Origin: Nitrospirota bacterium
GTDB taxonomy: Bacteria; Nitrospirota; Thermodesulfovibrionia; Thermodesulfovibrionales; SM23-35
NCBI GenBank assembly: GCA_040753615.1
Contig: JBFMDO010000014.1
Location: 2,456-66,455, forward strand
Direction of reading: 5' to 3'
Length of the DNA: 64,000 bases
The position numbers were made by a program, and so were the translations under genes. Positions within the stretch are counted from its first letter, which is position 1. Every line of letters starts with the position of its first letter. Shown piece after piece: positions 10,894-61,795 of this stretch. The notes below the pieces were generated by a model. It did no database searches, was not told the origin of the DNA, and saw only the letters and a list, made by a program, of their open reading frames with translations.

Positions 10894-11808
10894 ATGATTT
10901 CAAAGACAGAAAAGATATGGATGGATGGAAAGTTTGTAAAGTGGGATAAAGCTAATGTGCATATCCTTACACATACCCTCCAGTATGGTCTCGGTGTTTT
11001 TGAAGGCATAAGATGTTATGAAACAGACAAAGGTCCTGCAATATTCAAACTCAACGAGCATGTTGACAGACTATTTAGCTCAGCGCATATATTTCTGATA
11101 GATATCCCCTATTCTAAAAAGGAGATCAGAGAGGCAATAATAAAAACAATTAAAATAAACAGGATTAAGGAATGTTACATAAGGCCCCTTGTTTACATAG
11201 GGTACGGTGCTATGGGGCTGTATCCAAAAGGGAATCCGATTAATGTTGCTATTGCAGTATGGCCATGGGGGTCTTATTTGGGAGAAAAAGGGCTTAAAGA
11301 AGGCATCAGGGTGAAGACTTCATCCTTTATAAGGAATCATGTGAATGCAAATATGGCACGGAGCAAGGTTTGTGGATATTATGTGAACTCACAGCTTGCA
11401 AAAAAAGAGGCGATTTCATGTGGATATGAAGAGGCGCTTTTACTCGATACAGAAGGCTATGTTTCAGAGGGAAGCGGTGAAAATATCTTCATTGCAAGAA
11501 ATGGGATATTAAAAACAACCCCTCTTACCTCAATACTTGAAGGTATAACAAGGGATAGTATTATGCAAATGGCAAATAATGAGGGTATCAGGGTTGTAGA
11601 GGAAAGGTTTACGAGGGACGAAGTTTATATTGCTGATGAGGCATTCTTTACAGGAACGGCTGCTGAAATCACACCTATAAGAGAACTTGATAATAGGAGC
11701 ATTGGCAAAGGCAAGCCTGGCGATATAACAAAAAAGCTGCAGACATTATTCTTTGATATTGTCAGGGGCAAGAACAAAAAGTACGAATCTTGGCTGACAA
11801 GATTCTAA
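10894..11808 (+). CDS. ilvE: Branched-chain amino acid aminotransferase (class IV)
   Basis: 304 aa. Features are [22 protein letters not shown] and the class IV fold motif EGSGENIF. Confidence 0.9.
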
Positions 11809-17570: not shown

Positions 17571-18052
17571 CTCTCTCTCCGCGAAGGCTTTCTATAAAAT
17601 GCAGTTAAGGCTATAGCCAGTGCGTCTGAGGCATGAAAGGATTTAACATCAGTGATCTTAAGCAATTTCTTTATAGTCTCTTTAACTTGGTATTTATCTG
17701 CTCCACCATGTCCTACTAAAGAATTCTTTACTTCTTTTGGCGTAATTTCTACCATTGGGATATTATTTCGAAAAACAGATAAATATATAATACCTAAAAC
17801 CCCTCCTAATAATATACCAGCCTTTGGGTATCTAACTAAAGAAAATACATTCTCTATTGCAATTAAGTCTGGCTGCAATGCATGTATCAGATTATTTATG
17901 TCCGAATGAATTTGGAAAAGTCTATTGGAAATATGTTCTCTTGGAGATGTTTTAATATAGCCACATTTAAGTAAAGAAGGGGTTGCTTTATCGTACCTAA
18001 TTGCACCAAAGCCTGTATTTGCTAAACCTGGGTCTATGCCGAGTATGATCAT
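17567..18052 (-). CDS. ruvC: Crossover junction endodeoxyribonuclease RuvC
   Basis: 161 aa with MIILGIDPGLANTGFG and an acidic catalytic pattern. It is the first gene of a ruvCAB operon. Confidence 0.9.
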   Translation of the reverse strand: MIILGIDPGLANTGFGAIRYDKATPSLLKCGYIKTSPREHISNRLFQIHSDINNLIHALQPDLIAIENVFSLVRYPKAGILLGGVLGIIYLSVFRNNIPMVEITPKEVKNSLVGHGGADKYQVKETIKKLLKITDVKSFHASDALAIALTAFYRKPSRRER

Positions 18053-18731: not shown

Positions 18732-21455
18732 TCATTTTTTAAAAGAGGTATAATTTCGTTTCCACCATTTTTCAATCTCAACAGTGAAGAACACAATCGA
18801 AGACAATCCTAATGTTATAACCAATTCATTAAAGCTAAGAGGCTCTGTCTTGAATATTGGATTTAAAAATGGCACATATATTGTAGCCATTTGGAGAATA
18901 AAGGTTAAAATGAAGGCACTTAGAAGTGGTTTATTTGATAACAAACCCTGAGCGAAAAGAGACTCCCTCTCGGATCTTATGGCGAGGACATGACCCATCT
19001 GACTGAGACATAATACTGTAAAAACCATTGTCTGCCAGTGAGCATGTCCTGTCTTAATGGACCATGCCTGTGTAAAGATAGATACAAAGCCCATGAGTAA
19101 GCCTACCCAGATGATATGGGCACCAAGTCCATGTGCAAATATACTCTCTTGAGGATGCCTCGGTGGTCTTTGCATTAATCCTTTTTCAGCAGGTTCTGCT
19201 GCAAGGGCAAGACCGGGGAGACCGTCAGTAACAAGATTAATCCACAAAATATGAATCGGCAACAGCGGGATCGGGAGACCGAGAAAAGGCGCGAGAAATA
19301 TTGTCCATATCTCACCCGAATTACTCGTCATTGTATATTTTATAAACTTGCGAATATTATCAAATATCCTTCGCCCTTCCTTTACTGCCTTTACAATTGT
19401 TGCAAAATTATCATCGAGGAGTATCATGTGAGATGCCTCTTTTGAAACATCAGTTCCTGTAATGCCCATGGCAATGCCTATATCCGCCCTCTTTAATGCA
19501 GGTGCATCGTTTACACCATCTCCTGTCATTGCAACGAATTGTCCTTTATCCTGAAGTGCCTTTACTATCTTTAATTTTTGTTCCGGCGCTACCCTCGCGT
19601 AAACCCTTATGTGATCAACCTTTTCTTCAAATTCTTCCAGTGGCAACTTTTCGAGCTCTCTGCCTGTAATTATGTTTTTCTTATCGCTCTCGATTATTCC
19701 AAGCCTTTTTGCTATTGCCTTTGCTGTGAGCGGATGATCTCCAGTTATCATTACAGGTTTTATACCTGCAGTTTTACAAAGCAATACAGCCTCCTTTGCC
19801 TCTTCCCTCGGTGGATCCATCATTCCCACAAGACCTAAAATTATGAGGCTTGTTTCCACACTTTCAGGGGTAATGTCATTCGGCAGATTATCCCACATCC
19901 TCATACCAATACCTAATACTCTCAAACCATCAGCAGCCATCCTATCACTTATTCTGAGGATTTCTTCTGTATTTATGGGTTTTAATCCCTCAGATGTTAA
20001 AATACTGCTGGATTTTTCAATTAAAACTTCTACTGCCCCTTTTGTGAAGGAGATACCCCCCCCTTCGCTCCCCCTTACTAAAGGGGGGATGTGGGGGTGA
20101 GGTGGGTTTTTATGAATTGTTGTCATACATTTTCTTTCTGAATCAAAAGGGATTTCTGCAATACGGGGAATTTTTCTTTCCAGTTCTTTCTTATCAAAGC
20201 CTTCATCCTGTGCAATGTTATAAAGGGCAATCTCTGTTGGGTCCCCTATGATATTGCCTTCAGCATCCATCTGTGCATCATTGCTTAAAGCAAGAGCAGT
20301 CATAAGTATGACATCTGGAGAAGTTGGGAATGTAAGAAATTGAAAAGTTAAGAGTTTTTCAGTTCCTGTTCTTTTCTCGTCTCCTAAATTTCTCAGCTTC
20401 TTATCTTCTGTCTTTACTAATTGCCCATCCACATAAATCTCCTCTACATTCATCTTGTTCAAAGTAAGGGTTCCTGTCTTATCCGAACATATGTATGTAA
20501 CAGAGCCGAGGGTTTCCACTGCAGGGAGTTTTCTTATAAGGCTGTTCTGTTTCACCATCTTCTTTGCCCCAATTGCAAGTGAAATAGTTACTACAGCAGG
20601 AAGTGCTTCTGGTATTGCTGCAACAGCAAGGGAGATGGATGTGAGAAGCATCAAAAGAGGGGGCTCTCCTCTAAGTATCCCTATACCGAATACAATGGCG
20701 CATATGGCTAAAACTGCGATTGCGAGTTTTTGGCCAAACTTGGCAAGCCTTTTTTGAAGAGGAGTTTTTACCTCCTCCTCTTCCTGTAGCATGGTTGCAA
20801 TCTTTCCGAGTTCTGTATCCATGCCTGTTGCTGTAACAACACCCGTGCCTCGTCCATAAGTGACGAACGTTCCCTTGTACGCCATGTTTTTCCTGTCACC
20901 AATTGGCAAATGTTCGTCATGCAATGGCTTGATGTGTTTTTCCACAGGTACGGATTCACCTGTTAATGTTGCTTCTTCAACCTTTAATTGAGCAGCCTCT
21001 ATAATCCTCATATCAGCAGGTACAACCTTCCCAGTCTCAAGAATTACAATATCACCAGGAACGAGTTGATGGGCAGGGATGTTTGCGGGTATCCCGTTTC
21101 TCATTGCTGTTGCAATAGGCGCTGCCATCTTTTTAAGTGCTGCCACTGCCTTTTCTGCCCTGTATTCCTGTATAAATCCGATAATAGCATTAAGGACTAC
21201 AATGACCACTATAGCAATAGTATCTGAAAGTTCACCGATAAATCCTGATATAATTGCAGCGGCTATTAGGACAATGATCATGAAGTCCTTAAACTGGTCA
21301 AGGAGCATCATGAAAGGTGTCTTCTTTTTTGTCTCTTTTAGTTCATTGGGGCCGTATTGCTCAAGCCGCTTTCTGACTTCGTCTTCAGAAATGCCGCGGA
21401 GAGAAGACCTTAACTCATTAATAGTATCTTCTATATTTTTTTGGTGCCAGCGCAT
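18732..21455 (-). CDS. P-type IIA cation-transporting ATPase (SERCA/PMR1-like; predicted Mn2+/Ca2+ exporter)
   Basis: Motifs [28 protein letters not shown] and [15 protein letters not shown]. The ORF-track start at 21500 runs into the leader terminator, so ATG 21455 (MRWHQKN...) is preferred. Confidence 0.9.
20053..20107. repeat. G/C-rich nested-palindrome repeat inserted in frame inside the ATPase gene
   Basis: The sequence ACCCCCCCCTTCGCTCCCCCTTACTAAAGGGGGGATGTGGGGGTGAGGTGGG contains the hairpin TCCCCCTT-ACTA-AAGGGGG. It translates as [18 protein letters not shown] between the conserved [10 protein letters not shown] and ISFTKGAVE. It resembles the palindromes at 25026, 54351 and 61746. 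Confidence 0.55.
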
Positions 21456-21483
21456 AATACTCACTTCTTCTTGAATTAGAAAA

Positions 21484-21515
21484 CCTTTACCACGATCCAA
21501 TATTCGTGGTAAAGG
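21484..21515 (-). terminator. Intrinsic terminator (expression platform of the Mn2+ riboswitch)
   Basis: The minus strand reads CCUUUACCACG-AAUAUUGGAU-CGUGGUAAAGG followed by UUUUCU. The 5' arm overlaps the 3' P1 strand of the aptamer (GAGACCUUUACC). Confidence 0.65.
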
Positions 21516-21606
21516 TCTCGCTTGTTAGTTTTCACTAACCAGTGGTACCGGCCCGCTTTTCGTGGACGTGCTGACGATATCCACTGATTCAGCTACTCCC
21601 CTTCAC
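21503..21606 (-). promoter_or_regulatory. yybP-ykoY-type Mn2+ riboswitch aptamer
   Basis: Minus strand: GAAGGGGAGUAGCUGAAUCAGUGGAUAUCGUCAGCACGUCCACGAAAAGCGGGCCGGUACCACUGGUUAGUGAAAACUAACAAGCGAGACCUUUACC. It carries the conserved GGGGAGUAGC 5' element and the CAAG.GAGACCUUU 3' element recalled from the yybP-ykoY consensus. Confidence 0.75.
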
Positions 21607-21628
21607 TTAGAATTTGAGAGCTGTTTTT

Positions 21629-21658
21629 TATATAACCAGAAACTCTATATTTTTTCAA
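21629..21658 (-). promoter_or_regulatory. Candidate sigma-70 promoter for the riboswitch-ATPase transcript
   Basis: The minus strand has TTGAAA, an 18-nt spacer and TATATA, about 20 nt upstream of the aptamer. Confidence 0.35.
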
Positions 21659-21672
21659 GAAGGCATCCTGAA

Positions 21673-21876
21673 TTACTGCACTCTTATTGTCACGAGGGGG
21701 GCAAAATCTATTCGTTTTACAATATTCCCTACAGTATCTGTCAGTGCCCTTAATGAACCTATTTGGTCATACATTAGATAATACTTTGTTCCCTCTTTTT
21801 CCATTGATACTGGCATCCTGTCATCTGCATAATTAAATCTCATTATAAGATTATCATTTTTGTCATATGTTGCCAA
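21673..21876 (-). pseudogene. Rhs/YD-repeat protein fragment
   Basis: A 67-aa ORF without a credible start. YDKNDNLIMRFNYADD...YYLMYDQIGSLRALTDTVGNIVKRIDF matches the YD-repeat pattern near Rhs/teneurin core ends. Only a fragment is present. Confidence 0.5.
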
Positions 21877-21913
21877 TAGTGTTATCTATCCTTAGTAGCA
21901 TTGTCATGTTGTT

Positions 21914-21997
21914 TTATAACACAACAATGGACAATGGATTAAAATGCAAGAAACAAGACTTGACCCCCTGATCCCCTTTTCCTTATAAGTGTTAGGC
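21914..21997 (-). other. attC-like element after the DUF2283 gene
   Basis: The minus strand starts with GCCTAAC (an RYYYAAC core) whose TAA is the DUF2283 stop codon. TAACAC pairs with GTGTTA 70 nt downstream (GTGTTATAA). It contains the conserved 19-mer. The R' core is non-canonical. Confidence 0.4.
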
Positions 21998-22216
21998 ACT
22001 TTTCCGAATCAATTTATTATCAAGTTCAAGTTCGTAGGAGAGGATTGTTTTAATGTTCATCTTCTTGGATGCATTAAGGATTTCTATTCCGACTATCTTA
22101 TTTTCAGATGTTGTATCTAAATTGACACCCTCAGAAATCTCAACGACGCCGTCAGGTTTCTGATTCCCTAATTTAATATATATGGCATCAACCTCATTAT
22201 CATAATGTACTCTCAT
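21992..22216 (-). CDS. DUF2283-family small protein (antitoxin-like partner)
   Basis: 74 aa. MRVHYDNEVDAIYIKLGN...GIEILNAS is the DUF2283 (YuzE-like) pattern. Its start overlaps the upstream ORF in an ATGA. Confidence 0.75.
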   Translation of the reverse strand: MRVHYDNEVDAIYIKLGNQKPDGVVEISEGVNLDTTSENKIVGIEILNASKKMNIKTILSYELELDNKLIRKSA

Positions 22217-22440
22217 CTTTTCCTCCCTTTCTTAAGCGGATAATTTGTTACTATGGTTGTTAAATCTTCCTCAACGAAGACAACAATCTTCAAGGGATAC
22301 TTAAATTCAGGAACATCTCTTATAATTTCATGTTCGCCTTGATGCAAATTCATGCTCTTTAAAATGTCTATTACCATTGACTCTGAAATTCCGTAAAGTT
22401 TTGCCCGCCTTTTAGCATAGCGCTAAAATTTTATTTCCAT
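22213..22440 (-). pseudogene. DUF4258-like toxin gene with in-frame TAG at codon 6
   Basis: The minus-strand translation is MEIKF*RYAKRRAKLYGISESMVIDILKSMNLHQGEHEIIRDVPEFKYPLKIVVFVEEDLTTIVTNYPLKKGRKR, with the stop at 22423-22425. It overlaps DUF2283 by 4 bp. It was absent from the ORF track because of the stop. Confidence 0.55.
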
Positions 22441-22602
22441 CAGATATTACCTTTTTAAATTATAGCTTTTTTAGCAAAAAAGAGGCAATTTTATCGCCCA
22501 ATGCCCTATGAATGATTCGTTAGGCTGAAAATCTATTTCTTGAATGGATATTTAGTCCCCTCTTTGCCAGTATACGGATTATAATTTCCTTTTGTGCCAT
22601 AA

Positions 22603-22767
22603 TTGTTGAATTTCGATTTGTCCCTTGATACGTTTGATGCCATTCAACTCTCCATATGCATAGGATTAAAACCTATTGCTCTGATCTCAAGGGATAAGGA
22701 TTTTATAAAAATCTCAAAGCAATTTACTAAAGCTTTTACACCCGAAGAATTTTTATACAGCATCTGA
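22603..22767 (+). pseudogene. Possible PIN-domain (VapC-like) C-terminal fragment
   Basis: The open frame reads LLNFDLSLDTFDAIQLSICIGLKPIALISRDKDFIKISKQF... The D-A-x-x-L...LISRDKDF part resembles PIN C-terminal motifs. There is no N-terminal half. Confidence 0.3.
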
Positions 22768-23030
22768 AGTCTTTTAATTTGCTGAAGGGAGATTTAATTT
22801 TGCTTTGTGTTCAGCATTTATTTCATTCCTGTGGACAGTCGGACAAGACACCTAATGAACTAATATGGGAAGTTTTACTATGTTTCTATATTATGCTCTC
22901 CTTGCAATTTGCAAGAAACAAGACCTGATAATATGATTCGCTCTACAAATACCTCCCCACTATACCCTGATTCATCTCCTTCTCATATGGTCAGCACAGA
23001 GTGGAGCAGCGTGCATATTATAAGTAAGGA

Positions 23031-23321
23031 TTAGGTGACTAACGGTTCAAGATCGAATTTAACAGTAGGGACAGAAATTCTTGGCGATTTGGCAATCCGC
23101 TCTGAACTTTCTATTAATTTCAAGATTAATCGTCCCACATCAGCCTTAACGACCTTCTCTCCGCAACGTGGACATACGCCTGCAGGAACATCCTCCACAA
23201 TAATAAGTTCCCCTCGCAACCAAAAATCCTGTTTGATAAGCTTTTCCTGCATTTGAGTACCACAAATCTCGCATTCTCCATAATTATATTTTGTCTTTTT
23301 TCTCATTATCTTATTCCTCAT
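23031..23321 (-). CDS. YgiT-type zinc-finger protein (MqsA-N-like antitoxin candidate)
   Basis: 96 aa with CEICG...(30)...CPRCGE, a four-Cys zinc ribbon. It overlaps the upstream DUF4258 gene by 4 bp. Confidence 0.7.
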   Translation of the reverse strand: MRNKIMRKKTKYNYGECEICGTQMQEKLIKQDFWLRGELIIVEDVPAGVCPRCGEKVVKADVGRLILKLIESSERIAKSPRISVPTVKFDLEPLVT

Positions 23322-23593
23322 AAAGCATAAGTTGTAATTAATAATAATTTCCCCGTGTTTTTAATTCTACAAATAACTGCTATTTTCCTCCCATCAATTG
23401 CAGAACCAATAACCTCATAACGTGTTCCTCTGGGATCACGTGTAAACTTACGATTTATTCGGCCATTGCAAATTGCTATTTCAATATCCTCGAAAGTAAG
23501 ATTGTCGTTAGCCATCTCTTCAAAAAAATGTGGGATTGTAAATTCATATTCCTGCCCTTTAATTTTTTCTCTTATAATATGGATAATAGCCAA
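23318..23593 (-). CDS. DUF4258-family protein (toxin candidate)
   Basis: 91 aa with FTIPHFFEEMANDNLTFEDIEIAICNG...PRGTRYEVIG...KLLLITTY, typical of DUF4258. It uses a TTG start with AGAGGT upstream. Confidence 0.7.
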   Translation of the reverse strand: MAIIHIIREKIKGQEYEFTIPHFFEEMANDNLTFEDIEIAICNGRINRKFTRDPRGTRYEVIGSAIDGRKIAVICRIKNTGKLLLITTYAL

Positions 23594-23864
23594 TAATATT
23601 GACCTCTGACATTATCATTTATAATATTAGTATAGCATAACTCATAAGCTATCATGGCATATCGTATATCGTATATTATTTCGAGTGCTTGAGAAGGGCG
23701 AAGCCTTTAGGTGTTAACCTCGATCACCATGTTATCTATTGCTGAGAGCACCCTAAAAATACAGGCAGTGGAGCTATTAAAAATATCACCTTGAACTTGT
23801 TTCAGGGTCTCGTAACACATTAATTTATCTCGATGTTGGTTTATAACGTAACAATCGCTTAAAA

Positions 23865-23937
23865 TGCAAGAAACAAGACCTGACCCCTATGCCTCGCGTC
23901 TTGCAAGAAACAAAACCTGACCCCTATGCCTCGCGTC
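23865..23937. repeat. Two tandem 37-bp units carrying the conserved 19-mer
   Basis: TGCAAGAAACAAGACCTGACCCCTATGCCTCGCGTC, then T, then TGCAAGAAACAAAACCTGACCCCTATGCCTCGCGTC. The two units differ at one position. Confidence 0.85.
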
Positions 23938-24000
23938 TTCTGTTCGATTCGCATGGTTGTGAGGTGCTTCGCACCGAGCAAACATGCGAATACTCCTCAT

Positions 24001-24090
24001 TCGCACCGTTGTTGAGCCGCGCCAGCCACAGACCTTACAGAAAACTCTGCGACGTTTCACGGCGTCGGCTCGAACAACTGGTTATGTGGC
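24001..24090 (-). other. attC-like recombination site (best candidate)
   Basis: Minus strand: CACATAAC-CAGTT-GTTCGAGCCGACGCC-(37 nt)-GGCGCGGCTCAAC-AACG-GTGCGAA. It begins 8 nt after the PIN gene stop. It forms an imperfect hairpin with unpaired bases. The inner arms closely resemble the class 1 aadA attC as I recall it. Confidence 0.6.
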
Positions 24091-24093
24091 GTT

Positions 24094-24558
24094 TTAGCTT
24101 TCAAGCTCAGCGAGCATTTCGTTGATGTTGGCACACTTACCACGAAAACTTTTCGTAACAGCCACAAGATCAGTATCTTCAGTAACCAGCGTAATATTAT
24201 TTTTGATAGCTGTCTCGGCGATCAGAGCGTCCTGAATGTTGTTTGGTTTATTTTTATTCCGCTTGTCTATCTCTGCTTTGACTTTTGAATATAGATTGTT
24301 TTCTTCGTCTCCCAGTTTTGCTTTGTCGAGCCGGGAGACATCCAAGACAAATGACTCGGTTGGAACCTCATTGTTTTCTGAAACTTCCTCGAACACAGAA
24401 ATGAGTTCTTGGCGTCTTTGGGTATTTGAAGTTGCTTTTAGTTCGTCAAGCTGAACGTGGGTTGCGCAGAAATGCGCCTTTGTGCGGAATTTAGTAATTT
24501 CAACCACACCATCGAGGATACGGTTAAAAATATTTGTATCGAACATGTAACTTGGCAT
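24094..24558 (-). CDS. PIN-domain protein (cassette-borne)
   Basis: The likely start is ATG 24558 (MPSYMFDTNIFN...), preceded by GAGGGA. The motifs are the N-terminal DTN and the C-terminal DALIAETAIKNNITLVTEDTD. Confidence 0.75.
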   Translation of the reverse strand: MPSYMFDTNIFNRILDGVVEITKFRTKAHFCATHVQLDELKATSNTQRRQELISVFEEVSENNEVPTESFVLDVSRLDKAKLGDEENNLYSKVKAEIDKRNKNKPNNIQDALIAETAIKNNITLVTEDTDLVAVTKSFRGKCANINEMLAELES

Positions 24559-24571
24559 GGTCGTTCCCTCG

Positions 24572-24628
24572 CCACATAACAAGTTATTATGTAGTTAACT
24601 CGATAATACCAGAAAGTTCTTATGTGGT
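24572..24628. other. Imperfect 57-bp palindrome at the integrase-proximal cassette boundary (attI/attC-like)
   Basis: The minus strand reads CCACATAAGAACTT...(26 nt)...ATAACTTGTTATGTGG. The GTTATGTGG end is complementary to the CCACATAAC core of the attC at 24081-24090. Confidence 0.35.
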
Positions 24629-24689
24629 CAAGATAACAAATATGAGATGCTTGACGTAACTTTTTAATTTTAGTAGATTATTTAACCGA

Positions 24690-24713
24690 CTAATATTCCA
24701 AATGGAATATTAG
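24690..24713. promoter_or_regulatory. Perfect 11-bp inverted repeat upstream of the integrase remnant (operator candidate)
   Basis: CTAATATTCCA-AA-TGGAATATTAG lies 20 nt upstream of ATG 24733. A second dyad, TTAGTTA-GAAAA-TAACTAA, overlaps it at 24710-24728. Confidence 0.4.
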
Positions 24714-24732: not shown

Positions 24733-25195
24733 ATGCAAAAAGTTCCATATGATATTTGGGATCAATATGTGGCATTCCTAAATGCTAAGGTGAAAGATGT
24801 TTCGCAGCATGAAAACCTCAAAAAATGGTTTTTATACTTCTGGGACTTCCGTGCCAAATACCGTCCGCCAGATTCCAGATCCGAGCAGGTACGTTCGTTT
24901 ATCGAAAAGCTTCAGAACAAGGGACAGTCACAAAACAGGCGGCCCATGCAGTATCGCTTTATTTTGAGTCTCAGAATGCAGAGACAAAGGCTGAGGCAAC
25001 AACCCCGGCACCCAGAGAATCATAACTCCCCCTATCCCCCTCTTATCTTAAGAGGGGGATAGGGGGAGTTAATATTAAGGGGAAATTTTCAGACTTTTCG
25101 AAGATCAGGCAGGGTCATTATAGTGAATGGCGATGCCTTGAGAAATCCGGATCTCCGGCGTGGGAAAAGGTCATCTCCGAAAAAAGATACAAAAC
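24733..25195 (+). pseudogene. Tyrosine recombinase (integron-integrase-like) N-terminal remnant
   Basis: Frame 1 reads ...LKKWFLYFWDFRAKYRPPDSRSEQVRSFIEKLQNKGQSQ. It continues in another frame as KQAAHAVSLYFE, so there is a frameshift near 24930. This is the SAM-like N-terminal domain pattern. No catalytic domain is present. The remnant is interrupted by the palindrome at 25026-25068 and ends at lplA. Confidence 0.5.
25026..25068. repeat. Perfect 19-bp-stem G/C-rich palindrome
   Basis: CTCCCCCTATCCCCCTCTT-ATCTT-AAGAGGGGGATAGGGGGAG. It is related to the second hairpin of the 120-bp repeats at 54281 and 61676. Confidence 0.85.
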
Positions 25196-31594: not shown

Positions 31595-31648
31595 TTTGCC
31601 TTTCTTATTGACAGCAACAAATTTTTCATAGTATAGTAACACAAAACA

Positions 31649-31732
31649 GGCGATGGGGTTCGCCTTTAACCGTTCCGGTTGATCGGAAATAATGACCCCT
31701 ACTGAGACAAATAGTTTCGGTAGGGGTTTTTT
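31649..31732 (+). promoter_or_regulatory. Fluoride riboswitch (crcB motif) with terminator, copy 1
   Basis: GGCGAUGGGGUUCGCCUUUAACCGUUCCGGUUGAUCGGAAAUAAUGACCCCUAC is followed by the terminator CCCCUACUGA...UCGGUAGGGG and UUUUUU. This matches the recalled consensus GGCGAUGGnGUUCGCC...AACCGC...CUGAUGAcnCCUAC. Confidence 0.85.
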
Positions 31733-32905: not shown

Positions 32906-33320
32906 GAAAATCTTAATTGCCAATGATGGCTCAGATGGTGCAAAGCATGCATTACGGGTTGCGATAGATATTGCAAAGAAATATAATGCCGAACTTCACA
33001 GCATATCAGTTGAAGAAGGTGTTCCGCATTATGCTGCGACTATCGGCGAAGTCGAGGAATTCAGAAAAGAAGCAAATGATTATTTCAAGAAGATTAATGA
33101 CGAAGCAGTGGAAGCTGCAAGGAAAGAAGGCATTGAATTTCATACTAAAGTACAGGCAGGTCATGAAGTGGAGACAATCATAAATTATGCAAAGGAAGAA
33201 AAATTCGATCTATTAGTTATTGGATTTATGGGGCATTCGAAGATATTCGGAAGGATATGGGGTTCGACCTCACAGAACATAACAAAACTTTCTCCTTGTA
33301 CTGTTATTGTGGTAAAATAG
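32892..33320 (+). CDS. Universal stress protein (UspA family)
   Basis: 142 aa with KKILIANDGSDGAKHAL...DLLVIGFMGHS...GSTSQNITKLSPCTVIVV. Confidence 0.85.
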   Translation: MIMFKKILIANDGSDGAKHALRVAIDIAKKYNAELHSISVEEGVPHYAATIGEVEEFRKEANDYFKKINDEAVEAARKEGIEFHTKVQAGHEVETIINYAKEEKFDLLVIGFMGHSKIFGRIWGSTSQNITKLSPCTVIVVK

Positions 33321-33326
33321 CCTGAA

Positions 33327-33405
33327 GGCGATGGAGTTTGCTTAACCGTTCCGTATAATCGGAACTGATAACTCCTACCGAAGATATTTTTGGTAGGAGT
33401 TTTTT
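33327..33405 (+). promoter_or_regulatory. Fluoride riboswitch (crcB motif) with terminator, copy 2
   Basis: GGCGAUGGAGUUUGCUUAACCGUUCCGUAUAAUCGGAACUGAUAACUCCUAC is followed by the terminator ACUCCUACCGA...UUGGUAGGAGU and UUUUU. It aligns with copy 1 along its full length. Confidence 0.85.
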
Positions 33406-34689: not shown

Positions 34690-34766
34690 TGGTCGGGGCG
34701 ACTGGATTTGAACCAGCGACTCCACGGTCCCGAACCGTGTGCGCTACCAGGCTGCGCTACGCCCCG
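34690..34766 (-). tRNA. tRNA-Pro (anticodon CGG)
   Basis: Minus strand: CGGGGCGTAGCGCAGCCTGGTAGCGCACACGGTTCGGGACCGTGGAGTCGCTGGTTCAAATCCAGTCGCCCCGACCA. It folds into a cloverleaf with anticodon loop TTCGGGA and an encoded CCA. Confidence 0.9.
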
Positions 34767-54280: not shown

Positions 54281-54400
54281 AAAACCACCTTCTTCCCTCT
54301 TTTCCAAATCCCGAAGGCTTTCGGGACTCTTTAGTAAAGAGGGATACACACCCCTACCCCCCTCTTAATAGAGGGGATAGGGAAGATTTTATGAATAAGT
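54281..54400 (+). repeat. 120-bp composite hairpin repeat, copy A (left flank of the EPS export block)
   Basis: It aligns without gaps to 61676-61795, with about 10 mismatches in 120. It contains nested hairpins: CCCTCTTT...(CCCGAA-GGCT-TTCGGG)...AAAGAGGG and CCCCTACCCCCCTCTT-AATA-GAGGGGATAGGG. Confidence 0.9.
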
Positions 54401-61675: not shown

Positions 61676-61795
61676 AAATCCCCCTTCATCCCCCTTTTCC
61701 AAATCCCGAAGGCTTTCGGAACTCTTTAGCAAAGAGGGATACACACCCCTACACCCCTCTTAATAGAGGGGATAGGGGAGATTTTATAAATAAGT
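61676..61795 (+). repeat. 120-bp composite hairpin repeat, copy B (right flank of the EPS export block)
   Basis: A direct repeat of 54281-54400 offset by 7395 bp. It starts 11 nt after the ATPase stop codon. Confidence 0.9.

Follow-up and report, generated by a model that had tools for sequence, protein, structure and literature searches.

A short palindromic repeat, very probably of mobile origin, lies in frame in a loop of a Nitrospirota P-type ATPase

We analysed 64,000 nucleotides of DNA from a Nitrospirota bacterium (assembly GCA_040753615.1, contig JBFMDO010000014.1, positions 2,456 to 66,455 of the forward strand; this whole stretch is called the window below). A gene in the window for a type II P-type ATPase carries a G/C-rich palindrome within its coding sequence. 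The palindrome is very probably a member of a dispersed family of short palindromes, here called T1, which was copied in frame into a loop of the ATPase and is tolerated there. An earlier reading of the letters alone (the sequence-only reading) had proposed the in-frame insertion of a mobile palindromic element into a tolerated surface loop, and a gap in orthologs, a repeat family and the loop position of the insert supported the proposal.

The element occupies 53 nt at 20055-20107 (20053-20107 in the sequence-only reading), and the 922-aa frame around it is intact. On the coding strand, from 20107 down to 20055, it reads ACCCACCT-CACCCCCACA-TCCCCCC-TTTAGTAA-GGGGGA-GCGAA-GGGGGGGGT and encodes the 18 residues before ISFTKGAVE. 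The inner stem TCCCCCC/GGGGGA closes the loop TTTAGTAA; the outer stem ACCCACCT/GGGGGGGGT is mismatched at one position and is separated from the inner stem by an asymmetric internal loop. GC content of the loop DNA was 0.61, compared with 0.42 in the flanking ATPase gene, confirming a value far above the background of the gene. The ATPase loop folded at -27.1 kcal/mol (z -4.5 against shuffles). Among 60-nt segments of the gene the element was the most stable (-27.6, against a mean of -9.3 with standard deviation 4.1), and on the + strand of the whole window it ranked second in hairpin stability (-33.3, z -6.1). The pattern CCCCCT..AGGGGG gave 4 matches in the window, where 0.06 were expected; they fell at two sites, the ATPase element and the palindrome at 25026. 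The ATPase palindrome is no chance feature.

The translated ATPase showed 100% identity to NCBI protein P0001, annotated as a cation-translocating P-type ATPase of a Nitrospirota metagenome-assembled genome (MAG); the annotated form has 907 aa, with its MRWHQ start at ~21455. All five Pfam domains were found (Cation_ATPase_N, E1-E2_ATPase, Hydrolase, Cation_ATPase and Cation_ATPase_C). The best solved relative was the Listeria Ca2+-ATPase LMCA1 (E 6e-194), aligned end-to-end over residues 19-910, and SPCA1/SERCA gave E values of 1e-150 to 1e-162. The catalytic motifs DKTGT, KGAxE, TGD and GDGVNDAP were all kept despite the insert, in columns that were invariant in the ortholog alignment. Judged by its sequence, the ATPase appears to be intact with the insert in place.

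For comparison, 120 homologous proteins (73-81% identity) were aligned, and loop DNA was taken at 80 genomic loci; these came from GTDB species representatives, for the most part Nitrospirota/Thermodesulfovibrionales MAGs. A first motif-anchored extraction yielded 75 loci and a looser motif the remaining 5-6. L-numbers below label ortholog loci or metagenome contigs, and P-numbers label proteins. The reading frame was open through the loop in 80 of 80 orthologous loci. The strands flanking the loop were almost invariant; the loop itself ranged from 6 to 35 aa in the loci and up to 46 aa among the proteins. It had 6-7 aa in 17 of the 75 loci and 19 aa in the window ATPase, and a basal turn motif, (K/R)WxDG(K)F, was common to distant branches. 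LMCA1 had a 13-aa gap at this position. The sequence-only reading had predicted an ortholog gap of 15-18 aa: the gap exists, but the net gain of the window loop was ~12-13 aa, because almost all of the basal turn was replaced by the element. Orthologs carried different peptides in the loop.

The position of the insert in the protein was examined with an AlphaFold2 model built from 61 sequences. Overall the model had a mean predicted local distance difference test score (pLDDT) of 57 and a predicted template modelling score of 0.39, and the N domain alone was usable (P0001 residues ~380-560, pLDDT 83-90). The insert was modelled as coil with pLDDT <50 at P0001 residues 453-464, between two β-strands at 443-449 and 467-473, which agreed with the surface loop predicted from sequence. 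In this model the element maps to the tip of a β-hairpin in the nucleotide-binding (N) domain. By sequence (FDSxRK ... KGAxE), the hairpin lies just upstream of the KGAxE nucleotide-binding motif, and we take it to be the exposed SERCA1a loop with the trypsin site named T1. A short-segment PDB search for the SERCA numbering gave no match. The loop of L003/P0003 (RAAEQQSSRAAVIANY) is encoded by a AGCAGCAG-type tandem repeat; its hexapeptide SSRAAV is presumably also present in the SERCA1a loop (…AKSSRAAVGNK…), probably by coincidence.

Metagenome contigs were scanned with the pattern CCCCCCTT[N]AGTAA[N]GGGGG. The T1 core, 18-19 nt of the form CCCCCCTT(T)AGTAA(A)GGGGG, was present in at least 120 public metagenome contigs, in at least 124 copies. 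The full family form is [A]ATCCCCCC-N3-CCCCCCTT(T)AGTAA(A)GGGGGG-N3-GGGGGGAT[T]. The commonest form was (T/A)A-ATCCCCCC-N3-CCCCCCTTTAGTAAAGGGGGG-N3-GGGGGGAT-T(T/A), in which the AT ends usually enclosed 42-43 nt. The window copy resembles a second form, ACCCCCCT-N4-5-TCCCCCCTTAGTAAGGGGGGA-N4-5-GGGGGGT, and its subtype is ACCCCCCT-N4-10-TCCCCCCTTTAGTAAGGGGGA-N5-GGGGGGGT. Elements measured ~42-55 bp and ended in (T/A)AATCCCCCC ... GGGGGGATT(T/A) or in ACCCCCCT ... GGGGGGGT. An A at -1 and a T at +1 were invariant, and the right flank was ATT(T/G). In a small sample that was crudely parsed, the internal N3 spacers were fully complementary in 5 of 15 parsable copies (0.8 expected). The signature peptides and the core sequence had no relevant match in the literature searched.

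The ATPase element was 90% identical over 41 nt to the loop elements of L010 and L080, whose genes have 72-80% protein identity to the window ATPase, and 87-96% identical over 27-38 nt to metagenomic copies. Elements of the T1 kind occupied the ortholog loops of L080, L046, L010, L014, L039, L021, L035, L007 and L081. These loops folded at -18 to -47 kcal/mol (z -3.1 to -8.2 where computed), and the fold z of T1 copies in the loop was -4.5 to -8.2. The window copy, at -27 kcal/mol, was less stable than most near-perfect copies in other orthologs (-35 to -47). Because of this lower stability, its arm mismatch and its longer internal loop, it appears to be an older, decaying copy. Copies also lay outside the loop in the same genomes: L014:2254-2301 was 92% identical over 48 nt to the L014 loop copy, L039 had a T1 copy at 11041, in the other variable site of its ATPase gene, and L001 had one at 17609. 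Record titles of carriers of T1-like elements named Nitrospirota MAGs, Desulforhabdus sp. TSK, Desulfobacterium sp. N47 and a Pelobacter MAG, and Thermodesulfobacteriota were also labelled. On two metagenome contigs, at L107:4276 and L188:5088, the same T1 copy was nested in the hairpin GGGCGTCTCGCC ... GGCGGGACGCCC; this composite of two repeat families appears to be itself repeated.

Among the matches listed, 52 of 124 T1 copies (42%) lay in open frames of ≥200 aa, whereas random positions on the same contigs did so in 69% of cases; T1 is depleted from genes ~0.6-fold. A first parse of 82 copies on 80 contigs found 15 within a long frame with ≥100 codons on each side, and a Pfam domain spanned or flanked the insert in 9 of 10 host frames tested. 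The host enzymes were MurD, chorismate synthase (AroC), MnmA, FabF (two copies), an NAD-epimerase, a MetH-like protein, HypF, a PfkB kinase and TatD. Each strand of T1 has two open frames, and the third meets TAG/TAA in the hairpin loop. All four stop-free readings were found, PPLV(K/R)GG and PPFS(K/R)GG from one strand and PPLL(K/R)GG and PPFTKGG from the other, both in metagenomic genes and in ATPase loops of different orthologs. This is what would be expected if T1 inserts in both orientations and in all frames and disruptive copies are then lost, and the four readings among ATPase loops imply that T1 alone entered the ATPase loop several times. An extreme case was L103 (metagenome contig Ga0208362_1000521), in which a 1357-aa hydantoinase/oxoprolinase-like frame held at least 6 T1-like peptides: PPLVRGG, IPPLARGGKGG, PLSKGGERE, PPLLRGEGE, SPLLRGGQGG and PPLVIGGN.

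T1 was one of many occupants of the ATPase loop. Across the orthologs we found at least 9 different hairpin or heptamer-repeat families (T1 and at least 8 others). They included a CCCTCTCCC..GGGAGAGGG palindrome encoding PHPxPLPQGERE, tandem heptamer arrays that were often followed by their inverted complement (GATACAG.., GGGGCAA.., GAAGAGCA.. and TTAACTC..), and the plain tandem heptamers AGAAGTC and CAGCGGT. A second hypervariable site in the N domain (Table 1) had a length of 0-19 aa among orthologs, with repeat-like peptides that stem from the same families of repeats. In the window ATPase its DNA folded as a long imperfect hairpin with a purine arm and a pyrimidine arm (-20.1 kcal/mol, z -2.2) and matched the L058 loop element weakly over 20 nt. 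LMCA1 had a 16-aa gap there, the AlphaFold2 model gave pLDDT <50 at residues 353-377, and in L039 the site was occupied by a T1b copy. The segment 20307-20417 is probably a decayed second repeat insertion.

Loop content differed between close relatives, namely L007 and L004 (92% protein identity), L036 and L037 (89%) and L002 and L013 (87%), and one of the two loops was empty and the other occupied in L040 and L041 (83%). Loops holding the same type of element were 80-90% identical, whereas the adjacent 150 nt of coding DNA were 58-77% identical, the reverse of what ordinary codon-level conservation would give. That loops are more alike than their flanks speaks against a neutral loop inherited by vertical descent alone and against exchange of large gene segments; it favours either several insertions by members of the family or homogenisation of the loop copy with copies elsewhere. 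Exchange of loop alleles by recombination between ATPase genes was rejected, the flanks of same-type loops being no closer than the gene average. Targeting of hairpins into hairpins, as a cause of the hot spot, was not supported as a general rule: 157 flanks with T1 removed folded at -14.6 kcal/mol, compared with -14.1 for mismatched flanks (p = 0.23). Nested hairpins do exist, in L039, L021, L035, L002 and L107/L188. The simplest account of the hot spot is tolerance of the two N-domain loops.

We propose that a T1 copy inserted at the tip of the N-domain β-hairpin and replaced an ancestral turn of 6-7 residues. It would have survived because its length preserves the reading frame, because the frame used is stop-free, and because the C-runs and G-runs encode a flexible peptide, Pro-rich and then Gly-rich (PPxPPLxRGxxGGG), that would be bearable in a surface loop. 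The family would spread by copy-and-paste through an enzyme acting in trans, and genic copies would persist only where length and frame fit and the Pro-run/Gly-run peptide is at the surface. The insert would then be neutral or tolerated rather than functional.

Several observations weigh against this explanation. Direct repeats of a target-site duplication around T1 were found in 0 of 28 cases for k=3-6 and in 5 of 28 for k=2, and T1 copies of 42 and 43 nt were both in frame, which does not define the inserted unit. A tblastn search of 2.2 Mb with an approximate IS608 TnpA query found a single IS200-like fragment, in L007, and no match in the window. No second copy of the subfamily of the ATPase element was found in the window by BLAST; the three other palindromes of this kind in the window share its architecture (two C-runs, a loop and two G-runs) at a mean column identity of 52%. 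The ortholog tree was star-like (75-82% identity), and the copies of the window, L081 and L010 are compatible with one old insertion or several. That the loop peptide is translated is most likely, but this we infer only.

A different explanation is that the hairpin or its peptide does something useful at this site, is kept by selection and was for that reason acquired repeatedly, for example as a translational pause aiding folding of the N domain, as an internal signal for mRNA processing or stability, or as a lineage-specific loop for regulation or interaction. The presence of at least 9 unrelated structured families at the same two N-domain sites in many lineages fits this explanation, as do the 21 loops of ≥10 aa that fold at z ≤ -3 and the better conservation of the elements than of the flanking coding DNA. 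However, the insert is wholly absent in 17 of 75 loci, several inserts (L001, L005, L041, L008 and L003) are tandem heptamers without a significant hairpin, and the window copy is a decayed palindrome. The same elements are also scattered, without a fixed position, through many unrelated enzymes and through intergenic DNA, and loop contents are swapped between close relatives. We consider selection for function unlikely.

Origin in place, without a mobile element, is very improbable. The Pro/Gly loop would have grown by slippage or by template switching at a quasi-palindrome, and the likeness to repeats would be compositional. C-runs and G-runs are indeed prone to slippage, the other window copies are alike in architecture only, and type II ATPases in general vary in this loop. 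Slippage is nevertheless at odds with an 18-19-nt core that recurs with its TTAGTAA loop and second C- and G-runs in at least 120 unrelated contigs or genes, with the element identity to L010/L080 given above, which exceeds that of the proteins, and with the near-identical copies elsewhere in the genomes of L014 and L039. Such an origin is already largely refuted. An artefact of assembly or binning, such as a repeat-induced chimera, is extremely improbable, although the contig comes from a MAG and repeats can mis-join contigs: the frame is continuous with the same ATPase on both flanks, an identical protein was deposited independently as P0001, and elements sit at the same loop in dozens of independent assemblies from different studies. 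Insertion of a tolerated T1 copy is the explanation that we prefer.

Table 1. Positions of the ATPase gene, its repeat elements and other features in the window
Feature	Position	Strand	Remarks
Type II (Ca2+-pump-like) P-type ATPase, host gene	18732..21500	-	Single uninterrupted open reading frame (ORF), 922 aa from TTG start
T1a-type nested palindrome, 53 nt	20055..20107	-	Sequence, fold, matches to other copies
Outer arms of the nested palindrome	20100-20107 and 20055-20063	-	
Inner hairpin of the nested palindrome	20069-20089	-	Loop TTTAGTAA
Loop codons between ...CMTTIH and ISFTKGA	20055..20111	-	19 codons, motif-anchored extraction
Second hypervariable N-domain site	20307..20417	-	Between IYVDGQL and an 11-residue segment
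DUF4258 gene	23318-23593		MqsA-like partner at 23031-23321
PIN gene	24094-24582		Toxin-antitoxin-like, in the stretch adjoining the ATPase
Perfect palindrome	25023..25071	.	23-nt arms TAACTCCCCCTATCCCCCTCTTA / TCT / TAAGAGGGGGATAGGGGGAGTTA
120-nt composite intergenic repeat	54281..54400	+	C-run/G-run palindrome at 54352-54382; downstream of NusG-like gene
Second copy of the 120-nt composite repeat	61676..61795	+	Palindrome ~61747-61777; downstream of AAA_22 ATPase gene

The sequence-only reading had placed the same repeat architecture in non-coding DNA at 25026, 54351 and 61746. All three palindromes exist, but their sequences are only moderately like that of the ATPase copy; two are intergenic (54352-54382 and 61747-61777), and 25023-25071 overlaps the end of an ORF. 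The non-coding window copies belong to subfamilies other than that of the ATPase copy. The palindrome at 25023-25071 was the most stable hairpin of the window (-45.4 kcal/mol); a simple terminator scan flagged it on both strands, with a weak T tail, and left the ATPase copy unflagged. It covers the last 13 codons of the ORF at 24733-25062 (+), which ends in ...PYPPLILRGG*, as had been read from this frame. This ORF has 109 aa and no Pfam match, and it terminates within the perfect palindrome (...NSPYPPLILRGG*). Either the ORF is spurious, or its C-terminal end and stop codon come from the palindrome. An integron reading of this copy, suggested by an integrase-like N-terminus in the ORF and a cassette-like stretch upstream, was rejected: Pfam shows no integrase, and the ORF that follows encodes an LplA/B lipoate ligase. 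The two 120-nt direct repeats were 93% identical, each made up of three hairpins in succession (TCCCGAAGGCTTTCGGGA, CTCTTTAGTAAAGAG and the C-run/G-run palindrome); they could be a composite mobile element or a module of the 3' untranslated region or terminator.

Among known systems, the closest likeness is to Rickettsia palindromic elements (RPEs), which are ~150 bp long, form ten families and are confined to Rickettsia (PMC10969869). RPEs (Ogata et al. 2000, 2002, as summarised) are palindromes in frame in unrelated housekeeping genes, where they lengthen the protein by a peptide but leave it functional in kind, and in non-coding DNA, read as selfish DNA filtered by selection (PMC10969869, PMC3733652). 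T1 too is a dispersed hairpin-forming family found in frame in unrelated genes that stay intact, and also in non-coding DNA. However, T1 differs from RPEs as described, with its 42-55 bp, C-runs and G-runs, Pro-run/Gly-run peptides and Nitrospirota MAG host, and in the ATPase case many different families strike the same loop of one protein. T1 is not an RPE, because it has a third of the length, a different composition and different hosts. The analogy drawn by the sequence-only reading therefore stands as an analogy and not as membership (~45-55 bp against ~150 bp): T1 is a new family of RPE-like coding palindromes, which are themselves a known kind.

Repetitive extragenic palindromic (REP) and REPIN sequences are imperfect palindromes of 20-40 bp in high copy, mobilised by RAYT; doublets form larger hairpins, and clusters arise by insertion beside or into copies (PMC3116915). 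REP superfamilies are tagged GTAG or CGTC, and some REPs lie within coding regions of known proteins (PMC3733652). T1 is similar in size and clustering, but its ends lack a GTAG or CGTC tag, and its halves are not palindromes themselves, so that it forms one nested hairpin and not an inverted REP doublet. REPs are by definition mostly extragenic, whereas the share of listed T1 copies in long open frames was as given above. A RAYT/IS200 link gained no support from the tblastn search: nothing was found in the window, and the IS200-like fragment of L007 was flanked by a different hairpin, CCCTGCAGCAAGCTGCAGGG. This fragment of TnpA lies at L007:3700-4200, in a 106-aa ORF with HIHIM, and CCCTG(C/T)AGCAAGCT(G/A)CAGGG hairpins stand on both sides. 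These hairpins are a different REP-like element, ~1 kb from an ATPase ortholog that has a short T1-like hairpin in its loop.

Miniature inverted-repeat transposable elements have terminal inverted repeats and a target-site duplication and are typically 70-300 bp long; T1, one palindrome of ~45 bp without a flanking direct repeat, is not of this kind. The cyanobacterial STRR and SDR elements, described by Mazel in 1990 and Elhai in 2008, are said to be very small mobile repeats and heptamer arrays that can lie inside coding or structured sequence and also inside each other. Cyanobacterial STRR heptamers are mentioned in PMC4692102, and SDR in PMC3116915. The ortholog loop occupants T3-T9 are likewise heptamer arrays, often followed by an inverted complement; they belong to another phylum and have other sequences, and are likened here by description. 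SPRITE of Streptococcus pneumoniae is listed among mobile terminator-like hairpins (PMC10969869). T1 resembles a terminator in its GC-rich hairpin with A to its left and T to its right; on both strands the 25026 copy scores as terminator-like, and the intergenic copies lie downstream of genes. However, T1 has a short T tail, ATT(T/G), of which +1 alone is invariant, and the ATPase copy stands in mid-gene, where termination would harm. Mitochondrial genes of Nematomorpha contain coding palindromes of up to 284 bp with both arms translated (PMC6649704). These too are inverted repeats embedded in protein-coding genes, but they are long, mitochondrial and eukaryotic, and no dispersed family is shared with non-coding DNA.

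The stretch adjoining the ATPase gene (21500-24700) held few genes, and small toxin-antitoxin-like genes were present. The motif TGCAAGAAACAAGACCTGACCCC occurred at ~21945, 22910, 23865 and 23902; because it recurs at a spacing of roughly 960 bp, the stretch resembles a cassette array. No integrase was found. A search of the window against Rfam at the gathering threshold found no family at any of the four palindromes. The Rfam matches in the window were fluoride riboswitches at 31640-31708 and 33318-33384 (+) and a tRNA at 34693-34766 (-); the two riboswitches lie 1.7 kb from each other, and a strong terminator-like hairpin accompanies each.

To our knowledge, in-frame "selfish" palindromes within genes are a textbook matter only for Rickettsia. 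The ATPase case presents an RPE-like process in uncultured lineages that are free-living; the element is much smaller, and its product is a Pro/Gly linker. Segments of this kind make sequences look more divergent than they are and give rise to spurious low-complexity regions; alignment, domain calling and structure prediction can all be misled by them. The element also reveals P-type ATPase loops that tolerate 10-35 extra residues, and the orthologs provide a natural series of loop variants beside the KGAxE nucleotide-binding motif. An element of 45 bp that occurs in several phyla without a tag or target-site duplication calls for a mobilisation mechanism. Its interest is raised by its spread over uncultured lineages and many enzymes and by the repeated strikes of many families on one ATPase loop. 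It is quite possible, if short of probable, that T1 and the at least 8 other families are part of a large phenomenon, so far undescribed, among uncultured anaerobes that include Nitrospirota and Thermodesulfobacteriota. Housekeeping proteins would then gain many of their loop insertions, and gain them fast, from tiny palindromic repeats, with particular surface loops, such as the two in the ATPase N domain, as recurrent landing sites and turnover at <10-15% protein divergence. If so, an RPE-like process would operate on a far wider phylogenetic scale than Rickettsia.

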